From Candidatus Sigynarchaeum calidifontis (GTDB lineage: Archaea > Asgardarchaeota > Lokiarchaeia > Sigyniarchaeales > Sigyniarchaeaceae), in the NCBI GenBank assembly GCA_030587475.2, contig JAUQYZ020000230.1, positions 25,317 through 89,316 on the forward strand: a DNA stretch of 64,000 bases, in the 5' to 3' direction. The first letter of the stretch is position 1, and every line of letters begins with the position of its first letter. The notes under the pieces are model-generated. The model was not told the DNA's origin, did not search any database, and saw only the letters and a list, made by a program, of their open reading frames with translations. Position numbers and translations under genes: made by a program. This document shows, in pieces, positions 19,279 through 40,466 of the stretch.

Positions 19279-19392
19279 CGCGGAGGGAGGGGTTCGAACC
19301 CTCGCAGGATGTGGATTTTTGCGAGAAAGCCTCGCAGAACATTCTCCCACGGACTTAGCAGGCCCGCATCGTAACCACTTGATTACCTCCGC
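19279..19392 (-). tRNA. tRNA-Ser(GCT) with a 46-nt variable region (insertion or non-canonical intron)
   Basis: Acceptor GCGGAGG/CCTCCGC, discriminator G, D-loop AGTGG, anticodon arm CGGGC-CTGCTAA-GTCCG, T-arm GAGGG-TTCGAAC-CCCTC. 114 nt, CCA not encoded. Confidence 0.9.
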
Positions 19393-22070: not shown

Positions 22071-22550
22071 CTATGCCTTATCGTGATGGTGTTGGTCGTC
22101 ATGTCTATGCTCCTTCTCATCGCCCGCGTCGCCGCGCGGGAACACGTACAAAGGCACGAGCTCGCAAAATAAAATGCCCTTTATGGCCTTGACTTGCTCG
22201 ACGAATGACAAGACGCTCGTGACTTCACCCCGCAATGCGATTACTTCAGAACAGTTCTCCTCGGAAACATGGACATGCATGGTCGAGTAGATATGGATGC
22301 CGGCGTTGTGTTCGATCTCGGTGAGCTCATCGAGGAGGCCTCTCTGGTGATGGTTGAACGCGATGACGAGGAACCCGTCCTCGAATGTATCTGGCCGGAG
22401 CGTCGCCTCCTTCTTCAAGAACTCGCGCAAGGCATCCCGCACCACCTCGGACCGCTTGGCACCTTTTTCCTTGCAATACTTCTCCAGCTCCGCTAAGAAA
22501 TCCTTCGGGATCGTGATCGTGACGCGATCCATGTCCTTATCTGAGTACAT
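22071..22550 (-). CDS. nikR: Nickel-responsive transcriptional regulator NikR
   Basis: RHH domain (RVTITIP...RSEVVRDALR), EH...STMHVHV...CSEVI nickel site, His-rich tail. Confidence 0.92.
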   Translation of the reverse strand: MYSDKDMDRVTITIPKDFLAELEKYCKEKGAKRSEVVRDALREFLKKEATLRPDTFEDGFLVIAFNHHQRGLLDELTEIEHNAGIHIYSTMHVHVSEENCSEVIALRGEVTSVLSFVEQVKAIKGILFCELVPLYVFPRGDAGDEKEHRHDDQHHHDKA

Positions 22551-22992: not shown

Positions 22993-23020
22993 GTAATACT
23001 TTATTCCAAAGAAGTATGAG
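22993..23020. promoter_or_regulatory. Candidate NikR operator 1
   Basis: GTAATA-N16-TATGAG overlapping the ATG at 23016. Confidence 0.55.
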
Positions 23021-23645
23021 CAACGACTTCGCAAGCAAAAGCACCTTGTATGTTAACGGTGAAATCGATACATCGATCATTTCTGAAAATGACCAAAATA
23101 CCAATCGAAAATCCAAGGATATCGCCTTGATCGCGATCTTCTCTGCAATCCTTGGCATATTAGCAATTTTTGCATGGATCGTGCCGTTCAGGCACATCAC
23201 GATGGAATTTCTCATCAACGTGGTCGTTATCTTGTTATTAAAGATTGCCCGACGAAAGGGCACCTTGTTTTTCACCGGCCTGATCACGGGATTCATCGAT
23301 TTTTTCGCGGGATTGTCTGGCCCTGGCGGGTTTCTCGCCCCGATTGTCTACGGCTTTAAACTGGGCTTTTTAGAATCGGCAAATCACTATTATAAAAAAC
23401 CGCGCCATAGGAACGCGATGCTCATCGTGGTGAATTCAATTGGATATTTTCTCACGGGAACTTTGATCTGGATAATGTACACGGCACTATTCATTCCTCT
23501 TGGGACCGAGTCCACGCAAAAGATGTGGTTCGTGTTGACCCTCGCGGGTGCGTTGATTTGCATCCCCGCTACCGTCTTCGCCATAAATATATATGATAGG
23601 TGGTTCAAGCCGCACGCTCGGATCCTCATGCAAACGAAAACGTGA
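23016..23645 (+). CDS. Membrane protein, ECF S-component-like
   Basis: About six TMs; DIALIAIFSA and RKGTLFFTGLITG resemble ECF substrate-binding components. Confidence 0.6.
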   Translation: MSNDFASKSTLYVNGEIDTSIISENDQNTNRKSKDIALIAIFSAILGILAIFAWIVPFRHITMEFLINVVVILLLKIARRKGTLFFTGLITGFIDFFAGLSGPGGFLAPIVYGFKLGFLESANHYYKKPRHRNAMLIVVNSIGYFLTGTLIWIMYTALFIPLGTESTQKMWFVLTLAGALICIPATVFAINIYDRWFKPHARILMQTKT

Positions 23646-23744: not shown

Positions 23745-25754
23745 GTGACGCACTATAAAACCTTCCCGTTCAGCGCCATCGTTGGGCAAAACGACATGAA
23801 GCTCGCGCTTATCTTGAATGCTATCAACCCGAAGATCGGCGGGGTTTTAATAAAGGGTACCAAGGGTACTGCAAAATCTACGGCGGTACGAGCACTTGCC
23901 GACTTGCTACCCGAGATCCGGGTCATCAAAGACTGCCCGTTCAATTGCAATCCTGAAAGCATCAAGGAATCTTGTCATACCTGCCAACACAAGCTAGAAG
24001 CTGGGGAAATAACTGAAAAGGATATAGAAACGAGAAAGATGCGCGTTATTAACCTCCCCATCAATGCGACAGAGGATCGCGTCGTTGGTACCATAAACAT
24101 CAAGGAAGCATTGTCGACAGGACTCAAAGCGCTTGATCCAGGAATCCTTGCTGATGCGAACCGGAATATTCTATATATCGACGAGGTTAACTTGCTTTCG
24201 GATAACGTGGCCGATATATTGCTCGATTCCGCTGCGATGGGTATCAACATCATAGAACGGGAAGGGATATCTCTCCATCATCCGTCAAACTTCATCTTGA
24301 TAGGGACCATGAATCCCGAGGAGGGAAACTTGCGCCCGCAATTGCTCGACAGGTTCGGACTCGGTGTAGAAGCGGAGATTATAACTAATATCCCAGACCG
24401 GGTCGAGATCGTGCGTCGTTCCGAGGAATACCATGCGGATCCCTCCACCTTCTACGAAAAATACGATGCAAAACAGAACGCCCTTCGCAAGCAGATCGTT
24501 GATGCACGTGCTTTATTACCCGAAGTACGCATTCCAGACGAGCTTCTAGAAAAAATTGCATCGGTTTGCGTGGCATTCGAGGTCGACGGACACCGGGCCG
24601 ACATAACGATAAATGCAGCGGCGAAAACGCTAGCCGCTTTCAACGGGCGACGCGAGGTCTCGATCGAGGACGTGAAACATGCCACGCGGCTAGCATTGAT
24701 GCACAGATTACGTCGCCTTCCATTCGAGGATAAGAAGCTAGACGTCCATAAAATCGACGAGTTACTGGATAAACCCGAGCATTCTGGGGGGCCAGACCCG
24801 TCGGACGAGGGAAATCCCAAAATCGATAAAAGCGATAAAGAAGCGGGAAAACGCCAGGTCGTTAACCAGCGGGAAACGACCTTCAACATCGGCGTTGGCA
24901 TGAATGCAGATAAGGTGATCCATTTGCATAAAACCCGTGAATTGATGAATGCATCGGGGCGCATCGTCCCGCACCCGACGAACGACAAGCGTGGTGCCCA
25001 GTCCGGGATCGAGAAGCCTCGACGTAGCATCAACATGCCAACATCGAGCGATGTCGCTATCTTGCCCACGATCAACGAGGCCGTGTTGGATCCAGAGAAC
25101 CAGGCGTCTGTAAAAGCTGGCGGTTCCATTAATGTTGGCGAGAACCACATTCACGTGAAGAAAAGATCGGGAAAATCGAGCTATGCCATTATTTTTTGCG
25201 TCGACGCGTCGGGATCCATGGGCGCGGAGAACCGGATGGAAGCTGTTAAGGGTGCGATCTTCACCATTCTCCAAGGAAGTTACGTCCGGCGGGATAAGGT
25301 TTCCCTCGTCGTGTTCCGGCAAGACAAGGCCGAAGTCGTATTGCCACCGACCCGGAGCATCGATCTCGCGTTCAAAGTTTTGAAGGAAATTCCAACGGGC
25401 GGTACGACCCCCTTGGCTGCGGGTTTGCTCAAGGCAATCGATGTCGCAGCCGAGGAGAAACGCAAAGCTACCGGCTATATCCCCTTGATCATTATCATCA
25501 CCGATGCCCGGGCGAACGTGTATGTTCACGACGCAATTGATGATGCTAAAAAAGTCGCGAAATACATTGCGGAGCAAGGCGTGGAGACAATCGTGATCGA
25601 CACGGAATCACCAAGCTTGAAACTTGGTCTTGCGAGAGAAATCGCCGATGCAGCGAATGCCACGTATTATCCCATAGACCAGTTTGGAAAAGACGAGATC
25701 CGGAACGTGCTCCACGCGGAAGGCTTGCTCGAACCGATGACAAGCGAATCCTAA
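23745..25754 (+). CDS. Class I chelatase AAA+ subunit with vWA domain (ChlI/ChlD-type)
   Basis: FPFSAIVGQ, Walker [44 protein letters not shown] and GGTTPL. Confidence 0.93.
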
Positions 25755-25770: not shown

Positions 25771-28700
25771 ATGCCTTCCAATCTCCGAGTGAACAAGAAA
25801 CCATCCGTCGTCATAGTTTCCTCGATGGTATGCACCCGGAACTTGATCGACGCAGCTGCCACCGTTCGAGAGCAGCTGGGAAGCGTGTTTGATATTTCCG
25901 TTTTTTTCGTGAACGATGTCGAAACAGGAGTCGTTTCTAAATCAACATTCGTTACTGCCATTCATGATGCCAATGTCTTGATGATCGACATTCGCGGGAA
26001 CAATCTCGCCGCGGAACTCATCGTTGAAACCTATGAGGCAATGGAACGCGATGAACCAGCTTTGTTCAAGGAAAAAAGCATCGTTTCGCTTGTCGGGGGC
26101 AATGAGGAAATCAGGCGCTTGACCAAGCTCGGGCCTTTTATGGCCCGATCTATCCCATCGAAAAAGAAAAGCGAGTTGGGGATGGACGGTATTCCAGATC
26201 TTTCGGATCTCGTCAAGAAAGGCATACGGATCGGGCAAATGATGAAGTCCGCGGGAAAATACTTGCCGGTCGGTTCGCTCAAGCACGCGCGCAACTGGAT
26301 GCTGCTCATGGATTATTGGGCTTATGGCCACGCGGGCGTTCGCCAGAACCTCGAGAACATGTTCAAGCTGGTCCTCCGAGACTATCTTGGCCACGAATAC
26401 CTCGAGGTGCCCGAGCCTCAGAAATTCCCTCCTATCGGTATATACGACCCTCGTGACAATCGATATTATGCATCCACCGAGGAGTACCATCGCGCCCACG
26501 TTCCCGACCCCACCAAGCAGACCGTCGGTTTCTTCTTTTATGGGGGTATTTATTTCGAACAGACGCTGCCCGTGCTGGAATCATTCATGGAAAAGCTATC
26601 AGATTACAATCTTATTCCCGTATTTTCGGAATCTTTGGAAAATATCCACGCGCACGAGAAGTTTTTCTTTAAAGATGGCGTGCCGATCGTCAACGCTGTC
26701 ATCAACCTTCAATATTTCCAGATAAATGGTGGTCCATTCGGAGGTGACAATGCGCGCACGCTTGCATTGTATCGGCGGGAAAACGTTCCACAATTTAATC
26801 CGGTAATTTTATTTGACTCGAAAAGAGAAGAATACGAAGCCTCCACGAAGGGTACTATCCCGATCAACCAGGTCATCGCTGTAGTGATGCCCGAGCTCGA
26901 CGGCCGGATCGAGATGCTCGCGGCCGGAACAATGCAAGACAAGGGGATTCCTGATGGAGAACAGCTTCCCGTTTTGGAAGTCGGTCCTATCGAGGAAAAC
27001 ATCACCATCATCGCGAAGCGGGTCAGAAAATGGCTTGACCTCCGTGCAAAGTCAAATAGTGAAAAGAAAATTGCCATAATCCTCTATGATTATCCTCCTG
27101 GTGAAGCAAAGCTCGCGAGTGCTAGTTATTTGGATGTTCCAAGTTCCATCAAACGATTGCTAGCTTTGCTCGCACGCGAGGGATTTATTACTTTCCCCTT
27201 GCCTGATGGAAAGGAAATTCAAGACATTCTTATGGAATCAGGAGCCATCAACTCCCCGAAGCACGTAGACGTGAAGGATTACAAGGGCATTTCCATCGAT
27301 GCCCAACAATATAGCGAGCTCCTTGCATCGTTACCAAGCGAGACCCGCCAACGTGTCATCGACGCATGGGGCCCTCCTCCTGGTTCCATCATGGTCAAGG
27401 ATGGCCGCATTCGTCTTCCCATCTTGCAATTTGGTAATGTCTATATTTGCTTGCAACCAGCCCGCAGCGAGGTGACTGGGGATCCGGTCGAATATCATGA
27501 CAAAGATAAACCTCCCCATCACCAGTATGTCGCGTTGTATCGATATTTGGATGAGGTCGTCGATGTCGACGCCATCATCCATTTCGGTACCCATGGAACT
27601 CTTGAATTCTTGCCCGGGAAGGAATGCCTCGGCAACGTGAGGGATGATAACATTGCACTGCTCGGGCGGATCCCGAACATCTACATCTATCACGTGGGTA
27701 ACACGAGCGAGTCAGCCATCGCGAAGCGACGTTCGAACGCGGTCATCATCAACCACGCTGGTCCAGCGTTCGAATCCTATAACTTGAATCCAGACTTGCT
27801 CCAACTAGAAGACCTGGTGAACGAATGGCAAGACGCGCGCTCATCGAACGGAAAACAAGATGAAGGATTGCTCGATAACATCCGAGAGATCGCTCGAAGA
27901 ATAGGCATCGAATACTCATCGATGGCGGAACTGGAGGCGTTGATCCCCCGGTACAAGCTCGCGGCAGTTCCGATCGGCCTCCACGTGCTCGGGGAAACGT
28001 TCACGGTCGGAGAACGTAAAAAATTAATCACGCGTGCACTTCTAGACTCGGTCGAAGCCCCAACCGCGATAGACGCCGTGATCAACAGGTTTGGTAAGAA
28101 TGAGCATGCCGTGTTGCACGAGATCGAGCCCGTGGTCGAATCGATCATCACCAACAACATGGCTCCACCAGGTAGCAAAGGATATACAGAGATGGCGAAA
28201 AAACTGGGAATTGGGGAAAAGGATCTGGAGCAACTAGCAAGATGGGTCGCAGATCTGTCGGCACGCATGGAAGATTCCTACGAGGAACGTAATATCATCC
28301 GGGCCCTAGAAGGCGGGTATATCGAACCTGGATTCGGTGGAGACCCCATCCGTACCCCCTCGATATTCCCGACGGGGCGAAACTCGTTTGGTTTTGATCC
28401 ACGCTTGATCCCGAGTTCCATCGCTTTTAAGCGCGGCGAGGAAATCGCCAATCGCCTTCTACAGCAGTATAAAGATGAGCATGGCACGTGGCCAGAGACG
28501 ACAAGCGTTGTCCTCTGGGGTTTCGAGACCATGAAAACTGGTGGTGAAACCGTCGGGCAGATATTTAGTTATATGGGCGTTAAACCCGTCAAGAAGAAGT
28601 CAGTATGGACGACCGAGCTCGAAATCATCCCGCTCGCCGAGCTTGGTCACCCGAGAATCAACGTGGTCGTGACAATCTGTGGTATTTTCCGAGATACGTT

Positions 28701-29547
28701 CCCGTATATCCTTGATCTGATAAACCGGGCCATCGAGCTGGTCTCGAACCTGGACGAACCTGTCGACCAAAACTACGTGAAAAAAGCCACGCTTGATCTC
28801 GAAGCCCGGCACGTGCAACATCCGATTGCACGCATCTTTGGTCCATCGCCAAGTAGGTACAACACGAACATCACGGAGATCATCAATGCCGGCGCCTGGA
28901 AAGAGGAAGGAGAACTAGCGACCAATTACATCGAAACGATGGGATTCGCCTACTTGAAAAATCAAGAGGTCGAGGCCGCAAAGGACGCGTTCGCAGCCCA
29001 GGTGACCCGCATCGAGCTGTTATCACAAGTTCGCGATAGCAACGAATTCCACGTGACCGACTTGGATCATTATTACGAGTTCACCGGTGGCTTGGCACGG
29101 GCCCGCGAGCATCTCGCGGGCTCTAGGGCAAGCGTCTTTATCGCAGACACGTCACGGAAGCGGATCACCGTCGAAACCATTGACAAGAGCATTAACGAAG
29201 GTGCGGTGACCAGGACACTCAATCCCACGTGGATCCACGGGATGCTCAAGCACAAGCACAGCGGCGGGCAGAAGATTGCTGAACGCGTCGAGAATTTTCT
29301 TGGTATGGCTGCCACGACCCATGAGGTTAGCGAATGGATCTGGGACAAGACATACGCGCAGTACATCGAGAACGAGGAGATACGAGCCGCGTTGATCGAG
29401 AACAACCGGTTCGCCATGATGGACGTCGTGAAGACCATACTGCAAGCCAGCCAGCGAGGTTACTGGAACGCGAGCGACGAGCAGATCGACACGTTGAAGA
29501 AATTATATCTGGAAATGGAGAGTTGGCTTGAAATCACGTATCAATAG
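25771..29547 (+). CDS. Class I chelatase large subunit (ChlH/BchH/CobN family)
   Basis: MPELDG, YPPG, PPHHQY, HFGTHGTLEFLPGK, AKRR, GLHVLG, PTGRN, DHYYEFTGG and LNPTWIHGM. Confidence 0.93.
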   Translation: MPSNLRVNKKPSVVIVSSMVCTRNLIDAAATVREQLGSVFDISVFFVNDVETGVVSKSTFVTAIHDANVLMIDIRGNNLAAELIVETYEAMERDEPALFKEKSIVSLVGGNEEIRRLTKLGPFMARSIPSKKKSELGMDGIPDLSDLVKKGIRIGQMMKSAGKYLPVGSLKHARNWMLLMDYWAYGHAGVRQNLENMFKLVLRDYLGHEYLEVPEPQKFPPIGIYDPRDNRYYASTEEYHRAHVPDPTKQTVGFFFYGGIYFEQTLPVLESFMEKLSDYNLIPVFSESLENIHAHEKFFFKDGVPIVNAVINLQYFQINGGPFGGDNARTLALYRRENVPQFNPVILFDSKREEYEASTKGTIPINQVIAVVMPELDGRIEMLAAGTMQDKGIPDGEQLPVLEVGPIEENITIIAKRVRKWLDLRAKSNSEKKIAIILYDYPPGEAKLASASYLDVPSSIKRLLALLAREGFITFPLPDGKEIQDILMESGAINSPKHVDVKDYKGISIDAQQYSELLASLPSETRQRVIDAWGPPPGSIMVKDGRIRLPILQFGNVYICLQPARSEVTGDPVEYHDKDKPPHHQYVALYRYLDEVVDVDAIIHFGTHGTLEFLPGKECLGNVRDDNIALLGRIPNIYIYHVGNTSESAIAKRRSNAVIINHAGPAFESYNLNPDLLQLEDLVNEWQDARSSNGKQDEGLLDNIREIARRIGIEYSSMAELEALIPRYKLAAVPIGLHVLGETFTVGERKKLITRALLDSVEAPTAIDAVINRFGKNEHAVLHEIEPVVESIITNNMAPPGSKGYTEMAKKLGIGEKDLEQLARWVADLSARMEDSYEERNIIRALEGGYIEPGFGGDPIRTPSIFPTGRNSFGFDPRLIPSSIAFKRGEEIANRLLQQYKDEHGTWPETTSVVLWGFETMKTGGETVGQIFSYMGVKPVKKKSVWTTELEIIPLAELGHPRINVVVTICGIFRDTFPYILDLINRAIELVSNLDEPVDQNYVKKATLDLEARHVQHPIARIFGPSPSRYNTNITEIINAGAWKEEGELATNYIETMGFAYLKNQEVEAAKDAFAAQVTRIELLSQVRDSNEFHVTDLDHYYEFTGGLARAREHLAGSRASVFIADTSRKRITVETIDKSINEGAVTRTLNPTWIHGMLKHKHSGGQKIAERVENFLGMAATTHEVSEWIWDKTYAQYIENEEIRAALIENNRFAMMDVVKTILQASQRGYWNASDEQIDTLKKLYLEMESWLEITYQ

Positions 29548-29688: not shown

Positions 29689-30057
29689 TTATCCGATGAT
29701 GACTTGGGCTTTTTTTGCCTTACTTGGAATCTTGACCAACATCGCCGACACGATGACGATTATTGCCCAGACACCAACGATAGCAAATAGCATCGATGTT
29801 CCGAGCGTTGCCATCTCATAGAACATGACCGCGGCATCCGCTGGATCATTCATTGCAGTCAAGAACGGAAAGAAGGGAACAATTTCTTGGTGGGCAACAT
29901 GTTCTAGCGCAAGCATGATGACCCCGCCCCAGAGTAACAGGCTGAGAACCCCCAACTTGTATTTATCTATCACTGATTGTTTTCCCACGCGTCGGAGGGT
30001 AATATCGATAGGTATCAAGACGATGGCTAATGCCATCGGAACAAGAAAGCAGGCCAT
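29689..30057 (-). CDS. Small membrane protein (MACFLVP N-terminus), candidate metal-uptake component
   Basis: Three TMs; YKL..L..LLWGG..ML..EH motif shared with the upstream gene. Confidence 0.8.
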   Translation of the reverse strand: MACFLVPMALAIVLIPIDITLRRVGKQSVIDKYKLGVLSLLLWGGVIMLALEHVAHQEIVPFFPFLTAMNDPADAAVMFYEMATLGTSMLFAIVGVWAIIVIVSAMLVKIPSKAKKAQVIIG

Positions 30058-30063
30058 AGTTGT

Positions 30064-30372
30064 TCAGCTCCGTACATGTTGCATTTTTACTTTGGATACG
30101 AGGACTGCCAATTCCCAAATTGCAAAAACGGGGATGAGCATCGAGATACCGAGGATAAATCCATCCGCAATCAGACCATCTGTCGTGAATTCAATAAACG
30201 GGCTGGCGAAATCATATCCCCAAATATGATCGACAAGTATCATCACTGATGCACCCCATAGCATAACCGCTAACCAATCGAGCTTATACGTCTTCGGATT
30301 TGGTAAAGCAAGGTACACGGCTGTGACTGCCAAGGCAGCAATCAAGGTCGTTATGAGCCACACGTTTTTCAT
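30064..30372 (-). CDS. Small membrane protein, paralog of the downstream gene
   Basis: Three TMs; YKL..L..MLWGA..M..VDH motif; 6-bp gap to the next gene. Confidence 0.8.
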   Translation of the reverse strand: MKNVWLITTLIAALAVTAVYLALPNPKTYKLDWLAVMLWGASVMILVDHIWGYDFASPFIEFTTDGLIADGFILGISMLIPVFAIWELAVLVSKVKMQHVRS

Positions 30373-30384
30373 CTCGGAGAAGGG

Positions 30385-30416
30385 GAGTATTACGTCCCGT
30401 GAAAATCGTAATACTC
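30385..30416. promoter_or_regulatory. Candidate NikR operator 3 (perfect palindrome)
   Basis: GAGTATTACG-N12-CGTAATACTC, equivalent to GTATTA-N16-TAATAC. Lies between a TATA-like box (about 30441-30453) and the ATG at 30372. Confidence 0.8.
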
Positions 30417-31097
30417 ACGGTCTTCCAAGTTCCGTTCCAATTTAAAATTATAGATCCTCTGCCCAGTTCTCTTGCCTTCGATCGATCTCACGAATACCCG
30501 GATCAAGATGCTGGCGCCGTACATCAACACGATCACGGGAGACATGATAACTGCCTATTGAATCCGGGAACGTTTTCATTTTATGAACCCATTTTCGCTC
30601 TGGATCCGCGCACGATAAATTCGGTTAGAGATTGTCTGTAAGCGATTGCAAAAACCGGGAAAATGGTCATTCAAACCACTTATGATCTTCAGATCATCGA
30701 CGCGACCTATGACCGTTCTTCATTTTTTAACACGAATTCCCATCTCGTTGTATATAGAATTACACGTGACATTTTGAAGAATCCAAAATTGTTCATAAGC
30801 ATAAAACTTGTTGAAAAACATTATTCCAATTATCACGAAAAATATTATGGCCGGGTTAATGCTATCACGTTCATTTTCACCTATGAACATCTTTTTTTCT
30901 TGAGAGTGCACAAATTGAATGGCATCCCGCATAAACGAAGGTTTTACTTCCCCGTGTCGAAGATTATCGAAGAAAACTAATTCGGTAATCAAAATGGATA
31001 TATGGACTCCCTCCTTTTGTGGACAAAAACCACTTGCGGTCGGAATCATTCTTGCACGGCACATAGCAATCCTTATATTTGAAGCCGGGGGCTGGAA

Positions 31098-31643
31098 ATG
31101 CAAGAAACAAGACGGGAACTCGCGAAAGAATCCTATCTTTCCGAGGTTGCTTCGATCATCATCAATATTTTTGTCGGGCTCTGTTTAACGTTGTTGATCT
31201 TGCCGCGACAGAGTTTCGGGCAGATCGTGCTCATGGTACCCGCCATGATTTCGACGAGGGGAAACATTTCTGGATCTTTTTCTGCGCGCACGGCTCGCGA
31301 TCTGGTCATTGGTTCCTTCAGGCAAAACCATCACGAGAATATCTTATCCACGGTCGTGCTTACCATTGTCACAAGCGAGGTGATCGGTGGCTTGAGCTTG
31401 TGCATCGCCCTTTTGCTCAAACCAGGCTCTCTTTTACCCGTGCATTGTTTTTTATTGCTTCCACTCATTACCATGCTTCTAACCGTAGTGGTATCCATCC
31501 CGATTTCCACGGGCTTGAACACCATCGCTTTCAAGAAGGGGTTGAACCCGAGTAACGTGGTCCCACCAATCATGACCAGCGTGGACGACATTCTCGTGGT
31601 CGTGAACATGTTCATCGCTCTCGTAATATTGGGGGTGCCTTGA
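31098..31643 (+). CDS. MgtE-like integral membrane domain protein
   Basis: VPAMISTRGNISG and GLNPSNVVPPIMTSVDD. Confidence 0.85.
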   Translation: MQETRRELAKESYLSEVASIIINIFVGLCLTLLILPRQSFGQIVLMVPAMISTRGNISGSFSARTARDLVIGSFRQNHHENILSTVVLTIVTSEVIGGLSLCIALLLKPGSLLPVHCFLLLPLITMLLTVVVSIPISTGLNTIAFKKGLNPSNVVPPIMTSVDDILVVVNMFIALVILGVP

Positions 31644-32197
31644 TGCTGTCCTATTTTAAAAAGATCGTCCGAGAATCGAGCGGCGTGCTGATCGCTTGCA
31701 CGGTCATCACGATGGTGTGCGGGATTGCTCTTTCCGAGAGCGATGAATTGCTCTCTGCTATCCCTTTTCTCGTCTTGATCATGCCCGCCCAGAATGACGT
31801 CGTGGGTGACATGTGCCAGGTGCTCGTGGGCAGGCTGGCTTCGCATCTCTATATTGGGCTCGTTCCAGCACGGCTGTCGTTCACGCCTCGCGTCCGATAC
31901 GATTTCCAGTCTCTTTTCGTGGCATTGTTGTTAAGCGTATCGACCTTGCTCGCGGTGAACGTGATCGTTGCCACGATTTCCGGGATCGAGTTCGGTAACT
32001 TTTATAAAATCATCTTCGTCGTCTTCACCGCTGCCACCTTGTTATTTTCCATCATGTTCATCGTGCTCTTCACCGGTGCTATTTATATCTTCAAGCATAA
32101 CAAGGACCCGAACAATTTTTTAATCCCGATCACGACTTCATTGATCGACACGCTTTCTCCCATCTTCGTAGTATTGCTCGCGAGTATCGTCTTGTGA
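31640..32197 (+). CDS. MgtE-like integral membrane domain protein
   Basis: PAQNDVVGD and KDPNNFLIPITTSLID; 4-bp overlap with the previous gene. Confidence 0.85.
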   Translation: MMLSYFKKIVRESSGVLIACTVITMVCGIALSESDELLSAIPFLVLIMPAQNDVVGDMCQVLVGRLASHLYIGLVPARLSFTPRVRYDFQSLFVALLLSVSTLLAVNVIVATISGIEFGNFYKIIFVVFTAATLLFSIMFIVLFTGAIYIFKHNKDPNNFLIPITTSLIDTLSPIFVVLLASIVL

Positions 32198-32225
32198 AAC
32201 ATGCGGGCGTGGAGGCACACGAGAA

Positions 32226-33470
32226 ATGTCCAAATTAAAGAAAAAATTCAAACCAGCCCCGATATCCCTCAAAGAAATATTGCACGAAATGAAGACGAGC
32301 GTCGACGTCATGTTCGACCTTGCCTTTAGTGCCATCCTTTTCCAGAGCAAGGAAATCACGGAAGAGGCTGTAAATATCGACGATCGCGTCCACGAGCTAA
32401 CTGACCTGCTTGGCTACCAAGTCCTTCAAGCCAAGATAGGCCATTTTTCCGAATCGCGCAAGCTGGAGCCCGTCATCACGCTCGGCTATGCCATTGACAA
32501 GATATCCGAGGCACTTTCCGACATCGCGAAAGTCGTGCGCTTGAATGGCCACCTCGCGCAATTTTTCCAGCTTTGCTGGAAGGCTGATCCTGAACCCATC
32601 ATCAAGGTTGCCGTGTCCAGTGAGACCGCTTTCTGTGGCAAGAAATGGGACGACATCCCGTTCAAGGCGGATTACGGCGTGGATGTCATTGCCATCTACC
32701 ATGAGAAAAAATGGATTTTCGATGAAAAAGCGATCATCAATAAGGGAGACATCCTCATTGTTTCGGGGGAACTTCCTGCACTCGCCGAATTCAAGAAGAT
32801 CTGCAAGAGCGAAGAACCCATTTCCTTCGACTTGGAACGCAAGCAACCGATCGACTTGTTCGATCCCAACGACGAAAAAACGATGGCAGTCGTTAAGCGC
32901 TTGAAGGAAAATTACGTGAGAATCACTGATATGTCGGAAACGATAGTTGACCTCGCTTTCGCGTCATTATTTTTTGGCAATCTCGAGATTGCCGAGGATG
33001 TAATAGATCAAGAACATTTCATAGATAACTTGATCGTTGATTTGGAGCGAGACATACTCACGCTTGCAAAAATGATTCCCGTGCCGGAGCGCCTGCTTGG
33101 ACTCATGCGCATCGTGTTCTCGTGCGAGCTGATCTCCGACGCGGCTTCAAGCATCGCCGAAAATCTCCTCAAGGGATTTGAGCCCCACGAGGTGATCGTC
33201 GCAGCGTTTAGCGAGGCCTGGGATGTCGCCGTTCGGGAGGTCTTGGCGCCCGGTTCATTCCTCAAAGGAAAGACCGTCGCGGAGGTACACGTGCCAAAGC
33301 ATTCCAAGGGTTTTCATATCATCGCCATCAAGCGAGACAACGACTGGATCTACGACATCAAGATGGATTTCAAACTCCGCGCAGGAGACATCGTGATCGG
33401 CATCGGTCCCAAGGAACAGATCAATTTCTGGCGGACGCAAGTCAATCCAAATGCCGATGTGGATGATTGA
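32226..33470 (+). CDS. PhoU/TrkA-C (RCK-C) duplicated-domain protein
   Basis: Two repeats of a PhoU-like bundle (DLAFSA...EKIS/ELISD) plus TrkA-C (IIAIKR...GDIVIG). Confidence 0.85.
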   Translation: MSKLKKKFKPAPISLKEILHEMKTSVDVMFDLAFSAILFQSKEITEEAVNIDDRVHELTDLLGYQVLQAKIGHFSESRKLEPVITLGYAIDKISEALSDIAKVVRLNGHLAQFFQLCWKADPEPIIKVAVSSETAFCGKKWDDIPFKADYGVDVIAIYHEKKWIFDEKAIINKGDILIVSGELPALAEFKKICKSEEPISFDLERKQPIDLFDPNDEKTMAVVKRLKENYVRITDMSETIVDLAFASLFFGNLEIAEDVIDQEHFIDNLIVDLERDILTLAKMIPVPERLLGLMRIVFSCELISDAASSIAENLLKGFEPHEVIVAAFSEAWDVAVREVLAPGSFLKGKTVAEVHVPKHSKGFHIIAIKRDNDWIYDIKMDFKLRAGDIVIGIGPKEQINFWRTQVNPNADVDD

Positions 33471-34198: not shown

Positions 34199-35617
34199 CT
34201 ATTTTTCCCACAAGTAAATACATTTTCTCACCTCCTCCTTTCCGAAAGCACCCATCTGCTGGCTGCTATTTCCCTTGCCTGTTGGCAATTTGTCAATCTT
34301 CTTTAATCTCAGCCCCGCTTTTAGTGCAAACTCCGTGAGGATTAGATCAACTGGAATTACAACACCAGCAAATCGAACATTATCGTTTACATAGTAGATT
34401 TTTCCAGAGGTTTTCAAAACCCGAGCAAGTTCGAACATTATAAACGCGTGTTCGAGGAAATAATTATAGATCAATCTGAGAACATTTGGATTATTTAACT
34501 GCTTTTTCGCTTTCAGATCTTCAAAATGGGAGATGATTGCTTTTAAAACTTCATTATTCTGAAATGTATTCAATGCTTTATTGAAAATTTCCATTTTATT
34601 GTTTTGAACATATATATTCTTGATGAAATCGAGCTTCTCTTTGTTTTCTACAGTACATGATAAGAGATTCTGCCTCAAGGCACTCAAAGCACTCTCATCG
34701 ACTCCTAGAAATGCCAGTTCTAGGGCATACACTCTTGTATAATCGTACCTGTTCAAGTAAGGTGGAGATGTAATGATCAAATCGATGGAACCATCTGGAA
34801 TCGTCGGCAAGATCTGAAAATTTGATCCATGCTTGAGTTCCATTGAGTTTAATTTCCCTTTATTATGTACTGAATAGAATGATTGCAGATCCTCGATCAT
34901 GCATGCAATTTGCGTGTACAATGCCTTTTCAAAGTCAAGTATTTTATTCTTGGTATATTCTGCCTTGGGTTTTCCAGATCGAGTATCCCATCGTAAGAAT
35001 TGTCCTGCTTTTTCAGTATAACTAACTTTTTCAAGAATCGATAAACAAACGAATTTAAGAATTTCTTGTAATGCCGGATCAGTTATCACGTTTTTTATGT
35101 AAAAACGAAATGCGTTGATTTTTCTTTCTGTTTCAGGAGAAAAAGCCTTATCAGTAATTCTAACATGCTTAAAATTGGTCTCCTCGGATATTGGCATCTC
35201 CGCGAAATTTAGATCCTTTATTTGTCTTAGCAACCCCTTTAATACTTCTACGTCCATTTGTTCCGCTAGTAATCGAGCCTTAAATACAAATGGTCCCACG
35301 GGTAGCAATTCAATCCCAATTGAATCAAGCCCTCGCTCACGAGCACAGAATAACGTTGTACCAAGACCTGCAAAGGGATCAAGTAAAACGCCGTTTGTAA
35401 TGCCCGAATCTGTAATAAGATGGTTTACAAGTTTTGATGAAAAACCCTCTTGATACCTGTACCATCTGTAAAACGGCGCATTTTTATTTGCTTGTGAACT
35501 CACAAGTTGGCGATTTAGATTTGCATTTAAATGAATGAAATCCTGGTACCGGTCCTCCATCTCTTTGAGTAAACCTAAAAGGTGATCGGAAACTTTAATA
35601 TCGCTCGAGGTTTTCAT
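34199..35617 (-). CDS. Site-specific DNA methyltransferase, probably N4-cytosine
   Basis: LDPFAGLGTT SAM motif before the TSPPY catalytic motif. Markedly AT-rich relative to neighbours. Confidence 0.88.
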   Translation of the reverse strand: MKTSSDIKVSDHLLGLLKEMEDRYQDFIHLNANLNRQLVSSQANKNAPFYRWYRYQEGFSSKLVNHLITDSGITNGVLLDPFAGLGTTLFCARERGLDSIGIELLPVGPFVFKARLLAEQMDVEVLKGLLRQIKDLNFAEMPISEETNFKHVRITDKAFSPETERKINAFRFYIKNVITDPALQEILKFVCLSILEKVSYTEKAGQFLRWDTRSGKPKAEYTKNKILDFEKALYTQIACMIEDLQSFYSVHNKGKLNSMELKHGSNFQILPTIPDGSIDLIITSPPYLNRYDYTRVYALELAFLGVDESALSALRQNLLSCTVENKEKLDFIKNIYVQNNKMEIFNKALNTFQNNEVLKAIISHFEDLKAKKQLNNPNVLRLIYNYFLEHAFIMFELARVLKTSGKIYYVNDNVRFAGVVIPVDLILTEFALKAGLRLKKIDKLPTGKGNSSQQMGAFGKEEVRKCIYLWEK

Positions 35618-35801
35618 CTTGAAGCACGAAACGACGATCGATAAAACGCGATCGTATAAGTAGTTGAAGAATTCATAGATAATAACCCGTGTTTAATGCC
35701 ACGGTATTAACCAACATGACATTCTGTCATTTGGCAAATCATAATGCTAAGCATGGCAGAACATCATTATCATCAATCATCAAGCAAAGCATGTTCCATC
35801 T

Positions 35802-36884
35802 ATGGTTGGCCTTTCCTATTGTGACTTGTTCTGCGGCTGCGGCGGGTTCAGCGCCGGTTTTAAGGAGGCCGGTTTCCGGCCGCTCGGCGGCATCGATATG
35901 GACAAGATGGCGTGCGAGAGCTATAAAATAAATATCACGGGACGCGTTCGGAACGAGGACATAACCGGGGTGTTCGGCCTCGATTTCGCGCGGTGGCTCG
36001 GCGAGCGACCCGACATCGTGCTGGCATCGCCGCCTTGCGAGGGGTTTTCCGACGCGAACGTGAGCCGGATCGATGACGCGTGGGACCGGCTATATAATCC
36101 TCCCGGCTCGCTCACGATCGAGGCCATCGACTGGATTTGTGACCTCGATCCGAAGCTTGGCTTCATCATCGAGAACGTTCCCGCCATCGGCGAAGGGGCT
36201 CTTGCAGGATACATCGCTGACGAGTTGAAGCGTATTGGGTATAGCAAAGTATACTTCAACATGATCCGCGCCGAGCGGGTGGGGTCCCCCTCGAAGCGCC
36301 CTCGATTGTTCATCAGTAATATGAAATTCGAGGAGCCTCCCGAGATCCCCGCATACAACCGGTTCAAGAGGACAGCACTCGATGCGGGGAATGGTGATGT
36401 GAATGCCGGAGCGAGTGATGACTCGCAAGGCGAAGCCGGGATCGATGCCGGTGGCGCCGAAGAATCCTGTTATAGCCTCGTGACCGTGATGGATGCCCTT
36501 GCCGACTTGCCCGATCCTACCGCCATTCACGCCATCCCCGACCACGAACCCGCACCGATCTCTGCGACGCGAGAGAAAGAGATCGCGAACCTCAAGTGGG
36601 GCAAGTCGCTAATGCAGTTCGAGGGATCGAATGGTACGATGAAGAACACGTGGATCCGGGTGCATCCGTTCGATATTGCCCCGATCTTGATGGGTAAATC
36701 CACATTTATCCACCCGTTCGACAACCGGCAGCTCACGATCCGGGAATACGCGCGGCTTCAAGGTTTCCCAGACACGTTCTTGTTCTGCGGCGGCTTTTCC
36801 GAGAAGAAAAACCAGATCGGCGAGGCCGTCTCTCCCCTCGTGGCGTATTATCTCGCGCGGGTGATCGCGGACAAAACCACGTGA
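35802..36884 (+). CDS. DNA (cytosine-5)-methyltransferase
   Basis: DLFCGCGG, SPPCEGFS, IENV, R.RLF, REYARLQGFPD and QIGEAV. Confidence 0.93.
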   Translation: MVGLSYCDLFCGCGGFSAGFKEAGFRPLGGIDMDKMACESYKINITGRVRNEDITGVFGLDFARWLGERPDIVLASPPCEGFSDANVSRIDDAWDRLYNPPGSLTIEAIDWICDLDPKLGFIIENVPAIGEGALAGYIADELKRIGYSKVYFNMIRAERVGSPSKRPRLFISNMKFEEPPEIPAYNRFKRTALDAGNGDVNAGASDDSQGEAGIDAGGAEESCYSLVTVMDALADLPDPTAIHAIPDHEPAPISATREKEIANLKWGKSLMQFEGSNGTMKNTWIRVHPFDIAPILMGKSTFIHPFDNRQLTIREYARLQGFPDTFLFCGGFSEKKNQIGEAVSPLVAYYLARVIADKTT

Positions 36885-36899
36885 TAGATCGCGTGGCGT

Positions 36900-39800
36900 A
36901 TGGTATCGACAGAAGCGCGCCCTCGATCAACAATATATTGGCCATCGACGCAAGCTTCATTCATGCAAATAACGGCGCCTCTCCTCGAGATCGCACGATT
37001 TTCGGACCACGTGCTGAAAAACAAGGACCAGAACTGCATCGACCTCGTCTGGGCGGATCCCCGGGATATTTCTCTCGTTCACGTCGTGTTCGAGCCAAGT
37101 TTTGTCTATATTGGCACCCCCTCCCTCATCTCGGGAGTATATTACTGGAAGTACAATTGGCCGGAGAAACGGCCGCAAGCAATCGAGGGATCCGGCCAAT
37201 CCGGCTGGGAGGCGCGCGACGACTGGTACAAGGGCTCGTGGAAGGCAGCGGACATAACGAGCACCCGCCATCCAGGCGTGCCATTAACTTTATCCTTTAC
37301 ATTCAAGCCGATTGCATCGAAAGATTATCCTGTCACGTTCCGGCGCTCCCTCAAATTGCGCATCCAGTTCAACAAGAAGATCGTGGACATTGACAAGGTG
37401 AAAGATATCCGCGTGTACACGACAACGCTCTGCGCCCCGACAAGCTTCTCGATCTGCGTGGATCCCGGCTGGATCGACGTGAACAACATGTTCACCGCAA
37501 CCATCTGGAACGGCTATTTCACGACCAATGACAAGCCAATCGAGGACTTGAAGGTGGGTAGCGCGTTCGACACGCCCGTCACGCTGCTCGCGGCTTTGCC
37601 GTCGGAGCCGTGGTCGTTCGACTGCACCCAAGTGACTATCTGGATTCCGGGCCGCAAGCCCTTCACGTTCGCCATGGATGATCTGGTGCGCCAGGGATAT
37701 ATCTTCGTGCCTGCGATGCATGTCCTCGTGCGCGCCGAGGGCAGTCTCATGTTATTTAACCAGGCATGGAGCGACATCAAGTCCCGGCAAGCCGCGGCGA
37801 CTCACGAGCATCCCGGCACCCCGGAAACCCCAGCGTTGCTGGGCAAAAGCGTGTATGACAGATTGTTCGACCTTCCGGAACAAAAACTCGATCGTGCCCT
37901 CGAGAACTTCAAGGGGAAGCATCTTATGCATTTTATCCTCGGTTGTGAAGGAGTACGATCGAAATGCGCCCTTAGCATAGCAGGGAGCATCCATTCTGGG
38001 AACAGGTTCATCAAGAGAGTGGAAAGATCTGACACGCCAAGGGCAATCTGGAAAAAAGCAATGCTCAAGATCGCGAAAGTTGTCGCCGTCGATGATGAGC
38101 CCGCCGGGCTTGACTTGTCGACCACGCTCGAGAAACGGCACTTGTTGGACGGGTACATACCCGTGATGGTGTCGACGTGGAAACTTCCCCGTGGTGTCGT
38201 GCTCGAGCAAGAAGCCTATGCAACGCTGCTGCGCGGCACGGTGGTCGGGCAGCGTCCTATCGGCGACGATGACATCGTCGTGATGGAAAAGCTTACATTG
38301 AAAAACGAATCTACAACAGAACATGTGGTTTCTTTATCGTTAGTTTTTGGAGAATCCGACAGCATAAACGATGCCTCTCTCCCTGATCCTCTATTTGAAA
38401 ACATTACCTTGCAACCCGCGGTGAATGTCGCCGGACGGGTTTTAACCCTTTCCACGAGCTCGGGGAAGGAGTATCGATGTATGGTCGTCCCCGGGGATGA
38501 AAGTATGATCCTATCGGGCGAACAAGACAAGATCCCGTCTCTGGAGCTCAAGATGATTTTATCCCCTGGTTCGTCAAAAAGCGCTAACTTCAAGCTGCCC
38601 ATGCTTGCCATCGACGCGGCTGCAGTCGACAAGCATTTATCGAGCCTGGATCACGAGGGCGAGAAATTAAAGGTCGTTTCATACTGGAGAAACCGGTTAT
38701 CTAGTGCTGCATCGATAGAGGTTCCAAGCACTGATTTCAACGATTTTTACAAGGCACATCTATATCACGTGCTCGTGACGAATGACCGGGACGTGAACTC
38801 GGATCTCGTCTTCGGCCGGGTGGGTTCGCTGGTTTATGGGACGTTCGCCAACGAGGTGTGCATGGTCACGATGGATCTCGACCGGCGCGGGCTTCACGAC
38901 GAGGCGAAAAACATTCTCGAGGTTTTCATCAAATACCAGGGAACCAAAGGGTTACTCGGGGACTATGATGGCATCGACGGGATCTTTTTCGGCGCGGACG
39001 GTTACGAGAATGGCGAGGGATACAATCAAAATCATGGTTTCGTGCTGTGGGCGATGGTGGAACACGTGCGCTTGTCCGGTGACGTGGATTGGTTCAAGCG
39101 AAACGCGCTCGCCGTGATCAAGGGTTGCGACTGGATTGCCCGGGAACGTCGCATCTTCGATGAATCGATGGACGCCCGCAAGGCAATGGCGTTCAAGGGG
39201 ATGAACGAGGTGTACCGGGGATTGTTGCCGCCTGGTGGGGTCGAGGACGTGCAAGATTTCTGGTTCTGGCTTTCTACCAACGCGTATAACTGCTTCGGGA
39301 TGGCGCAAGCAGCGAGTATGCTGGAAGCTATTGCACACCCCGATTCGCCAAGAATAGTGGCGGAAGCGGCCGAATACGTCGCCTCGGTGAAAAAAGCTTT
39401 CGAATCCGCGATGCGTGCCTCGCCTGTCGTGGCATTGCGCGATGGCACGTTCGTGCCCCATTATCCTTGCAGATTGCCATGCCGGGGACGGGGCTACGGT
39501 TGGATCCAGGAAACGCTTGAAGGTGCCGTGCACCTGCTCCGGACTTGGATCGTGAACCCGTTCTCCAGCGAAGCCGCGTTCATAATGAAAGATTATGAGG
39601 ACAACTTGTTCTTATCTGAAAAATATGGATATCCTATCGTTGGTGATGAATTCGAGAAGCGATGGTTTAGCACTGGCGGCTTTAGCCAGCAACCCTTCTT
39701 GCTTTGCAATCCATGGCCATACGGCATGCGCGGCAACACGAAGCATTATCTCCGGGCCGTGCTGAACGCGTTTTCCGTGAACTACCGTTCGGACACGCGC

Positions 39801-40466
39801 ACGTTCTGCGAGCACCCGTTGCCAGGGCTACTCGACGTGCGCGGCGATTTTTTCAAGACATCGGACGAGGCGAATTTTTGCGGTTGCTTGCGAGACATGC
39901 TCGTGCAAGAAACCATCGCGAGCGTCGACGAGGTGCTCGAGGGTTGGGAAGGGAACCCCGACCAGCACCCGAACAGCGATGCGATGGAGACGCTGCACGC
40001 GCTCGGTTCCTGGGATCGCATGGATGGCCTCCGCGTGCTCTACCACGTGCCTCGCGAGTGGCTATCTAACGGGAAGGAGATCCACGCGCGCGGGCTGCCC
40101 ACGTATTTCGGAAAGGTCGATGTGGACATGGTTTCGAAGACCGGCGATGGCCGGGTGGACGTCAACGTGTCGATCGATCGCAGCACGGGTCGACGCGTCA
40201 ATCCCCGGCTGAAGGCCGTGTTCATCAAAATCAGGCACCCGGATCTTGCAACAAATATCACGCACCTCGTGCTCGAGCAGCTCGACGCGTCGAAAGAAGG
40301 CGCAGCCTTCAACCAGGTGCAGCCGAGTTTCGTGAGAGACCAAGCGTTCGGGATCGGGTTGATAGCAAGGCTCACGCCGTCGTGGACGCGTGTCGTGATC
40401 CGTGCCCGCGTTTTCTTTCGAGAACCGAGACCCGAAGAATTAGTCCCCAGCACGCTCGCATCGTGA
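36900..40466 (+). CDS. Large putative glycoside hydrolase, (alpha/alpha)6-barrel type
   Basis: 1188 aa; beta-rich N-terminus, then a helical region with YGTFANE, HGFVLW...H and GLLPPGGVED...W..TNAY resembling six-hairpin glycosidases. Confidence 0.5.
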   Translation: MVSTEARPRSTIYWPSTQASFMQITAPLLEIARFSDHVLKNKDQNCIDLVWADPRDISLVHVVFEPSFVYIGTPSLISGVYYWKYNWPEKRPQAIEGSGQSGWEARDDWYKGSWKAADITSTRHPGVPLTLSFTFKPIASKDYPVTFRRSLKLRIQFNKKIVDIDKVKDIRVYTTTLCAPTSFSICVDPGWIDVNNMFTATIWNGYFTTNDKPIEDLKVGSAFDTPVTLLAALPSEPWSFDCTQVTIWIPGRKPFTFAMDDLVRQGYIFVPAMHVLVRAEGSLMLFNQAWSDIKSRQAAATHEHPGTPETPALLGKSVYDRLFDLPEQKLDRALENFKGKHLMHFILGCEGVRSKCALSIAGSIHSGNRFIKRVERSDTPRAIWKKAMLKIAKVVAVDDEPAGLDLSTTLEKRHLLDGYIPVMVSTWKLPRGVVLEQEAYATLLRGTVVGQRPIGDDDIVVMEKLTLKNESTTEHVVSLSLVFGESDSINDASLPDPLFENITLQPAVNVAGRVLTLSTSSGKEYRCMVVPGDESMILSGEQDKIPSLELKMILSPGSSKSANFKLPMLAIDAAAVDKHLSSLDHEGEKLKVVSYWRNRLSSAASIEVPSTDFNDFYKAHLYHVLVTNDRDVNSDLVFGRVGSLVYGTFANEVCMVTMDLDRRGLHDEAKNILEVFIKYQGTKGLLGDYDGIDGIFFGADGYENGEGYNQNHGFVLWAMVEHVRLSGDVDWFKRNALAVIKGCDWIARERRIFDESMDARKAMAFKGMNEVYRGLLPPGGVEDVQDFWFWLSTNAYNCFGMAQAASMLEAIAHPDSPRIVAEAAEYVASVKKAFESAMRASPVVALRDGTFVPHYPCRLPCRGRGYGWIQETLEGAVHLLRTWIVNPFSSEAAFIMKDYEDNLFLSEKYGYPIVGDEFEKRWFSTGGFSQQPFLLCNPWPYGMRGNTKHYLRAVLNAFSVNYRSDTRTFCEHPLPGLLDVRGDFFKTSDEANFCGCLRDMLVQETIASVDEVLEGWEGNPDQHPNSDAMETLHALGSWDRMDGLRVLYHVPREWLSNGKEIHARGLPTYFGKVDVDMVSKTGDGRVDVNVSIDRSTGRRVNPRLKAVFIKIRHPDLATNITHLVLEQLDASKEGAAFNQVQPSFVRDQAFGIGLIARLTPSWTRVVIRARVFFREPRPEELVPSTLAS

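Follow-up and report, generated by a model that had tools for sequence, protein, structure and literature searches.

Two small paralogous membrane proteins as a likely NikR-repressed nickel uptake permease

Hydrogenases, urease, CO dehydrogenase, methyl-CoM reductase and the nickel-pincer cofactor all depend on nickel; for many organisms that use this metal, no importer has been recognised. Surveys of archaea have described only three transporter families, namely Nik/CbiMNQO, NikABCDE and NiCoT (PMC2667541). The NiCoT transporters (including HoxN and NixA; Pfam NicO, PF03824) import nickel or cobalt without an ATPase, are often controlled by NikR or located beside hydrogenase and urease genes, and consist of one polypeptide with eight transmembrane (TM) helices. 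Their HX4DH signature places acidic and histidine residues within a TM helix (TM2). HupE and UreJ are small secondary nickel permeases found in hydrogenase and urease clusters, and the N-terminus of the mature protein carries a conserved metal ligand; members of this family (PF04955) have one chain of six TM helices and a cleaved signal peptide. For NikM and CbiM (PF01891), metal chelation by a strictly conserved free N-terminus at the outer face has been proposed, and they are regulated through NikR boxes, whose signal has been described as GTGTTAC-[N13/14]-GTAACAC, with the reversed orientation also seen (Rodionov et al. 2004; PMC545781). NikM has seven TM helices, starts with Met-His, and needs NikQ and NikO (EcfT and ATPase). 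A different group, SemiSWEET and PnuC, is built from two parallel three-helix units with an N-out/C-in orientation and one translocation path, and occurs in fused forms as well; its cargo is sugars or vitamins, not metals.

A stretch of 64,000 nucleotides from the archaeon Candidatus Sigynarchaeum calidifontis (hereafter the window) carries two tandem minus-strand open reading frames, separated by 6 bp, that encode a large subunit (A) and a small subunit (B) of a membrane protein family annotated as hypothetical in every source (Table 1). The evidence presented below makes it likely, in the absence of any transport or metal-binding data, that A and B form a nickel uptake permease repressed by NikR and belong to a family unrelated to the recognised nickel transporters. 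A NikR-controlled nickel acquisition unit is a known kind of system; what is new is the protein family that builds it. The link to nickel is strongly supported, and the substrate, the direction of uptake and transport itself are inferred.

Table 1. Coordinates of the gene pair, its putative control elements and other features in the window
Feature	Position	Strand	Description
tRNA gene	19279-19392	-	114 nt
nikR, presumed repressor	22071..22550	-	159 aa; PF08753 (E 9.5e-21) and PF01402 (Pfam)
Weaker NikR-like box	22993		GTAATAC-N14-GTATGAG, overlaps ATG
Polytopic membrane protein gene	23016-23645		209 aa
Weaker NikR-like box	23665		ATAACAC-N14-ATATGAC
ChlI/D-like AAA+/VWA protein gene	23745-25754
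CobN-type chelatase gene	25771-29547		1258 aa
Gene A, large subunit	29689..30057	-	122 aa (ORF list)
Gene B, small subunit	30064..30372	-	102 aa as ORF (ORF list)
NikR-type operator (putative)	30385..30416	.	Core dyad GTATTAC-N14-GTAATAC at 30387-30414, perfect 10-bp arms
TATA-like AT-rich box	30440..30453	-	CTATAATTTTAAAT in gene orientation, ~25 bp upstream of first half-site
Split MgtE-type transporter genes	31098-33470		Divergent from the pair; two ~180-aa genes
Low-G+C stretch	34199-40466		G+C 0.40 at 34.5-36 kb

A and B are paralogues, with 31% identity by BLASTP (E 2e-8) and a profile-profile match covering all three helices (96.5% probability, E 8.4e-10; 80 A and 77 B sequences). A preliminary description, made from sequence alone, had already taken them for duplicates, and that claim held. 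The motif on which it relied, YKLxxLxxxLWGxxxMxxx[ED]H, is present in both window proteins; as a family feature it survives only in part, the W-G and an acidic residue being common to both families (the invariant remnants are W-G, E52-H53 in A and D48 in B). Two further claims about this motif did not stand: the supposedly conserved Met/His pair fails across the family, M48 of A and H49 of B not being conserved, and the E/D-H element lies at the outer end of TM2 and not deep in the membrane, as had been proposed. The observation that one protein begins with M-A-C was correct for A, in which MACF is invariant in 80/80 species-level homologues. The start of B is less certain. In all homologues other than that of the window, the first residue (MWL... 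or MTLL...) aligns with V4, and the true start may for this reason be the GTG at 30363; B would then have 99 aa and begin 21 bp from the inverted repeat discussed below.

The two genes appear to act as one unit. They are adjacent in 79/80 species-level loci, and the sole exception is cut by a contig end. Their arrangement varies: A precedes B in bacteria and in some Thermoplasmata, other loci, the window among them, have B first, and the layout is divergent in Bathyarchaeia. An exhaustive HMM search also recovered natural fusions (P0135, P0151, P0155, P0165, P0172 and P0180), each of which consists of a complete A followed by only TM2-TM3 of B; for example, residues 159-213 of P0172 are 40% identical to residues 27-78 of B. 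A longer protein from a word-index search, P0121, proved to be a mis-called ORF and not a fusion. The absence of TM1 of B in these fusions fits the same orientation of both subunits, because a fusion of two such subunits requires that loss. Near-obligate adjacency and natural fusion thus support the heterodimer proposed in the preliminary description.

AlphaFold2 models place three helices in each protein, at residues 5-24, 29-55 and 72-108 of A (pLDDT 88.5) and at residues 4-22, 31-52 and 67-101 of B (pLDDT 84.1). According to a charge tally, Lys and Arg are concentrated in loop 1 and the C-terminal tail of both families, with none in the N-terminus and almost none in loop 2, which is acidic. 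From this distribution it follows that both subunits are oriented N-out/C-in and that the dimer is parallel; together with the fusions, the charges indicate a parallel N-out heterodimer, for which no heterodimer model is available. Across 80 sequences, the invariant residues of A are M1, A2, C3, F4, L38, W43, L49, E52, H53, H56, E58, P64, L66, E81, G86, M89 and W97, and G44, G45, P61, F65, T67, A68, M78 and M82 are conserved at >=90%. Constraint is weaker in B, in which L6, W39, G40, D48, L74 and W86 are invariant in an alignment of 77 homologues, and the Cys/His/Glu/Met set is a property of the A family and not of B. By inference from the topology, the free N-terminus of A, the E-H-x-x-H-x-E at the end of TM2 and the Met-rich acidic loop would all face outward.

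The family is large and has no detectable relatives among characterised proteins. It comprises more than 1,400 clusters at 90% identity, an exhaustive HMM search gave 608 clusters at 50% identity, and at least 556 GTDB species carry it. Among the archaea, it occurs in Bathyarchaeia, Thermoplasmata, Methanomethylicus, Altiarchaeia, Odinarchaeia, Archaeoglobi and Halobacteria-like MAGs; among the bacteria, its carriers include rumen and gut Clostridia (Ruminococcus, Pseudobutyrivibrio, Lachnospiraceae and Anaerovorax) as well as Solobacterium, spirochaetes, Kiritimatiellae and Dehalococcoidales. Neither A nor B has a Pfam match at E up to 1, a match in NCBIfam, or a match to PDB sequence profiles. 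Foldseek against the PDB and a wide VIA-align search returned no specific solved fold for either protein, only generic helical bundles, the best with Z 6.8; these searches, which also addressed the SemiSWEET/PnuC question, used monomers, without a dimer model. Neighbours in the ESM Atlas were all labelled 'hypothetical protein' and had no Pfam family. No described family of this type was found in the literature searched; the 2006 J. Bacteriol. survey by Rodionov et al. was not covered, and a mention there is not excluded. A match to an already characterised family would have refuted the original proposal, and none was obtained from any of these sources. In the host's own phylum the pair is rare (2/201 genomes), and its stretch is slightly lower in G+C (0.44-0.51) than the genome (0.54); acquisition by horizontal transfer is possible. 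In one Archaeoglobaceae MAG (locus L080; 10001-10081 and 9712-9867), early stops interrupt both A and B (27 and 52 codons), reflecting either a decayed copy or an assembly error.

Compared with the described transporters, A and B would likewise be ATPase-independent importers as in NiCoT, and the E-H-x-x-H-x-E of A can be set beside the NiCoT acidic-histidine signature; whereas NiCoT is one polypeptide, they are two paralogous three-TM subunits, and no PF03824 match was found in them or in the host genome. Similarly, no PF04955 match to HupE/UreJ was found at E up to 1, nor was any present in the host genome. The pair resembles NikM/CbiM in its conserved free N-terminus and its NikR box type, but it has no associated ATPase or recurrent Q/O genes, starts with Met-Ala-Cys, and has no PF01891 match. 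The impression by eye that the proteins are unlike NikMNQO, NiCoT and HupE was therefore upheld. The inferred architecture of two parallel three-helix units recalls SemiSWEET and PnuC, to which no sequence similarity was found.

The upstream region of the pair contains a perfect inverted repeat with arms GAGTATTACG (30385-30394) and CGTAATACTC (30407-30416), a 12-bp spacer, and an end 12 bp from the ATG at 30372. The placement of the TATA-like box is such that the transcription start would fall at or just before the repeat, promoter function being inferred. Four perfect 10-bp inverted repeats occur in the window, where ~1 is expected in block shuffles, and a repeat of this kind is not remarkable by itself; its weight rests on its sequence, its geometry and its conservation at orthologous positions. 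The half-sites differ from the published NikR consensus by one symmetric base and have the 7-N14-7 geometry, and the site is the only perfect dyad match in the 5-Mb host genome. When the dyad GTRNYAC-N13-15-GTRNYAC was searched with <=1 mismatch within 80 bp upstream of the pair's first gene, it was found in 16/28 archaeal loci (species), several others having weaker versions; the background in the rest of those loci was 4 matches in 363 kb, or 0.0009 per 80 bp. The operator is thus conserved upstream of the pair across archaea. In loci with a good dyad, it mostly ends 10-18 bp ahead of the start codon, and many loci, among them L017, L022, L026, L040, L053, L059, L078 and L086, have a TATA-like box 17-22 bp ahead of their first half-site. 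This layout puts the operator over the expected transcription start, from which a repressor geometry is inferred. Moreover, the half-sites are direct repeats in several Bathyarchaeia, so the conserved object is a DNA site and not an RNA hairpin. The dyad was not found upstream of the pair in bacterial loci, one spirochaete excepted. Rfam searches of the window and eleven homologous loci revealed neither a riboswitch nor any other RNA element ahead of the pair, and the seven bacterial loci scanned had no riboswitch there. The preliminary description was accurate about the 10-bp repeat, its distance of 12 bp from the ATG and its position downstream of a TATA-like box, and its assignment as a NikR palindrome is supported, the site being a variant of the published signal.

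Two further sets of dyad matches were rejected as apparently unrelated to nickel: one in contig C231 lies inside a coding region, and those in C232 are GTATTACGG repeats before a small ORF resembling a ribbon-helix-helix (RHH) protein. In the latter (L091; 1400-1480), four copies of GTATTAC(G/A) occur within 75 bp upstream of this 104-aa ORF, whose likeness to a ribbon-helix-helix protein was judged by eye and which adjoins an SRP54-like gene; the repeats resemble the operator half-site, without any nickel context.

To characterise the genomic neighbourhood, flanking ORFs of 80 loci were clustered all-against-all without prior labels. With A and B themselves, one antisense artefact and ABC ATPases of a generic kind set aside, the most recurrent families were NikR (10 loci of 80), the nickel insertion protein LarC (9 of 80), UreG/HypB (8 of 80), HypF, UreC, UreD, UreF and LarB (6 of 80 each), UreE (5 of 80), the anaerobic Ni-CODH CooS (TIGR01702; 4 of 80) and HypE (3 of 80); the first non-nickel family, an AMP-binding enzyme, was level with UreE (5 of 80). 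At least one of the nickel-related families lies within 10 kb in 31/80 loci, and in 21/48 among loci of >=12 kb. The remaining ~60% of loci, mostly from Lachnospiraceae and other Clostridia, have no recognisable nickel gene within 10 kb. In four Ruminococcus species, cooS ends 16 bp upstream of A. The nikR gene is 7.8 kb from the pair in the window, directly divergent from it in seven other archaea (L016, L048, L072, L075, L078, L086 and L089), and within 7 kb in two more (L027 and L066). The window NikR combines a ribbon-helix-helix with the nickel-binding domain NikR_C and is the only NikR_C match in the host genome; the domain was also present in 3/3 of the neighbouring nikR products scanned. 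In the archaeal locus L001, the pair sits between cbiMNQO and a cobalamin biosynthesis cluster and also carries a NikR-type dyad. These data show a genomic association of the pair with nikR and with genes for the maturation of nickel enzymes. The survey of homologue neighbourhoods for nikR, hydrogenase and lar genes that the preliminary description had asked for was thus favourable (nikR, larB/larC, urease, hypE/hypF and cooS). Its heterodimeric metal importer is supported as well, transport itself still being an inference, and where it had proposed Ni/Co, nickel is indicated rather than cobalt.

The distribution of other transporters was also considered. The host encodes NikR and carries two [NiFe] hydrogenase loci, and no CbiM/NikM, NiCoT or HupE/UreJ was found in its genome, which is 89% complete; one EcfT/CbiQ homologue is present, on another contig. 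In five cultured pair-carrying bacteria, no CbiM scored above the cut-off and NiCoT was absent, and EcfT/CbiQ was not found in 3/5 pair-carrying archaeal genomes (completeness of the MAGs unknown). In the R. albus family, the pair occurs in 5/121 genomes, and CbiM was found in 0/5 carriers versus 30/116 others, a difference in the expected direction that is not significant. The pair is present in 3/6 genomes with true urease versus 2/115 others (hypergeometric estimate ~7e-4, uncorrected for relatedness), and two of the three copies adjoin urease genes.

In the proposed mechanism, a parallel A/B heterodimer (2 x 3 TM; A large, B small) would import Ni2+ across the cytoplasmic membrane, and NikR would repress its transcription by binding GTATTAC-N14-GTAATAC between the TATA-like box and the start codon, for which no binding or expression data are available. 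The direction of uptake is deduced from the repressor geometry, from the operon partners (maturation genes and apo-enzymes) and from the lack of other importers. Metal may be captured at the outer face by the free N-terminus of A together with E52-H53-x-x-H56-x-E58 and the acidic Met-rich outer loop, and its onward path could run between the two bundles of three helices and pass D48 of B. Removal of Met1 ahead of Ala is expected from methionine aminopeptidase, and the Met-Ala-Cys terminus of A would probably become Ala-Cys; any likeness to the N-terminal metal hooks of NikM and Ni-SOD is loose and remains speculation by analogy. The binding site as a whole is a conjecture from conservation and topology only, as no heterodimer model exists and the monomer coordinates were not inspected. 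Because no ATPase is encoded with the pair, the drive is probably the membrane potential or protons, combined with cytoplasmic sequestration. A bolder reading, for which the balance of evidence tips only slightly in favour, is that these proteins are widespread minimal nickel permeases of two parallel three-TM subunits, unrelated to NiCoT, HupE, UreH and ECF transporters, and that they capture Ni2+ by the Ala-Cys N-terminus of A and the E-H-x-x-H-x-E; this degree of confidence applies to the reading as a whole.

Several other explanations should be weighed against a self-sufficient nickel permease. The pair could be the substrate-capture part of a larger energised nickel transporter, either as a split S-component-like module on a shared ECF (EcfT/EcfA) unit or as an accessory to another permease. 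A and B together have six TM helices, which matches an ECF S component in size; NikM and CbiM have a metal-binding N-terminus, which the invariant free N-terminus of A recalls; and an EcfT/CbiQ homologue in the host and the nearby cbiMNQO in L001 are in line with such an arrangement. Nevertheless, no ATPase or EcfT gene recurs beside the pair in 80 loci, the neighbouring ABC ATPases are heterogeneous and mostly distant, three of the five archaeal carriers yielded no EcfT/CbiQ (with the above reservation about MAG completeness), and neither the sequences nor the folds resemble S components, which makes this alternative improbable. It is also considered unlikely that the pair handles cobalt, or both metals, instead of nickel specifically. 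The position of the L001 pair beside cobalt-related genes and the convergent ChlI/D and CobN-type chelatase operon in the window would suit this explanation, and permeases such as NiCoT often take both metals. On the other hand, the neighbours that recur are specific to nickel (urease, LarBC, Hyp, cooS and NikR), even the L001 pair has the NikR-type dyad, and scans of bacterial loci detected no cobalamin riboswitch upstream. A specificity for cobalt, or for both Ni and Co, is not excluded, because of the L001 context and the CobN-type neighbour in the window.

A role without import, as an exporter, a sensor or a membrane-anchored chaperone, could be envisaged since genomic context gives a link to nickel and no direction, and the proteins are very small for a transporter. 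This appears very unlikely: the classical role of NikR is to repress uptake genes when the metal is abundant (PMC545781, PMC2667541), an operator between the TATA-like box and the start codon has the geometry of repression, operons with enzyme-maturation genes (cooS-A-B, ure and larBC) are typical of importers, and other recognised importers were not found in the hosts. Finally, the palindrome might be a chance inverted repeat or an RNA hairpin before genes unrelated to metals. By chance alone, about one perfect 10-bp inverted repeat can be expected in 64 kb, and when the whole host genome was scanned, no other plausible nickel gene was preceded by a second convincing dyad. Nonetheless, the position of the dyad is kept across distant archaea, including species whose direct-repeat half-sites cannot form a hairpin, and nikR is adjacent in many loci, so that this possibility can be all but dismissed. 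A NikR-repressed nickel uptake permease remains the preferred explanation.

If this interpretation is correct, the pair would account for the 'missing' nickel importer both in many archaea (Bathyarchaeia, Thermoplasmata, Methanomethylicia, Altiarchaeia and others) and in those Clostridia of rumen and gut that produce urease, Ni-CODH or the nickel-pincer cofactor. Assigning the A/B family would close an annotation gap in archaeal and rumen-bacterial nickel metabolism. With ~220 residues in total, the pair would be among the smallest metal permeases, and it is because of this small size that it may provide a tractable model for the selection and movement of a metal by six helices.

Other features of the window deserve brief mention. 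The nearest neighbour of the pair is the large CobN-type chelatase gene, which is convergent with it and is preceded by the ChlI/D-like gene. Both belong to an operon from which nikR is divergent and which also encodes a 209-aa polytopic membrane protein without a family match; two weaker NikR-like boxes lie in this region (Table 1), and a class I chelatase under nickel regulation would be unusual. A split MgtE-type divalent cation transporter is encoded divergently from the pair; each of its two genes specifies one MgtE membrane domain, and after them comes a 414-aa protein that has two PhoU and two TrkA_C domains and is possibly the transporter's cytoplasmic regulator. The tRNA gene presumably contains an intron because of its length, and fits an archaeal host. 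The low-G+C stretch encodes an N6/N4 DNA methylase, a C-5 cytosine methylase and a 1188-aa protein without a Pfam match, and is probably a restriction-modification or defence island beside the nickel region.
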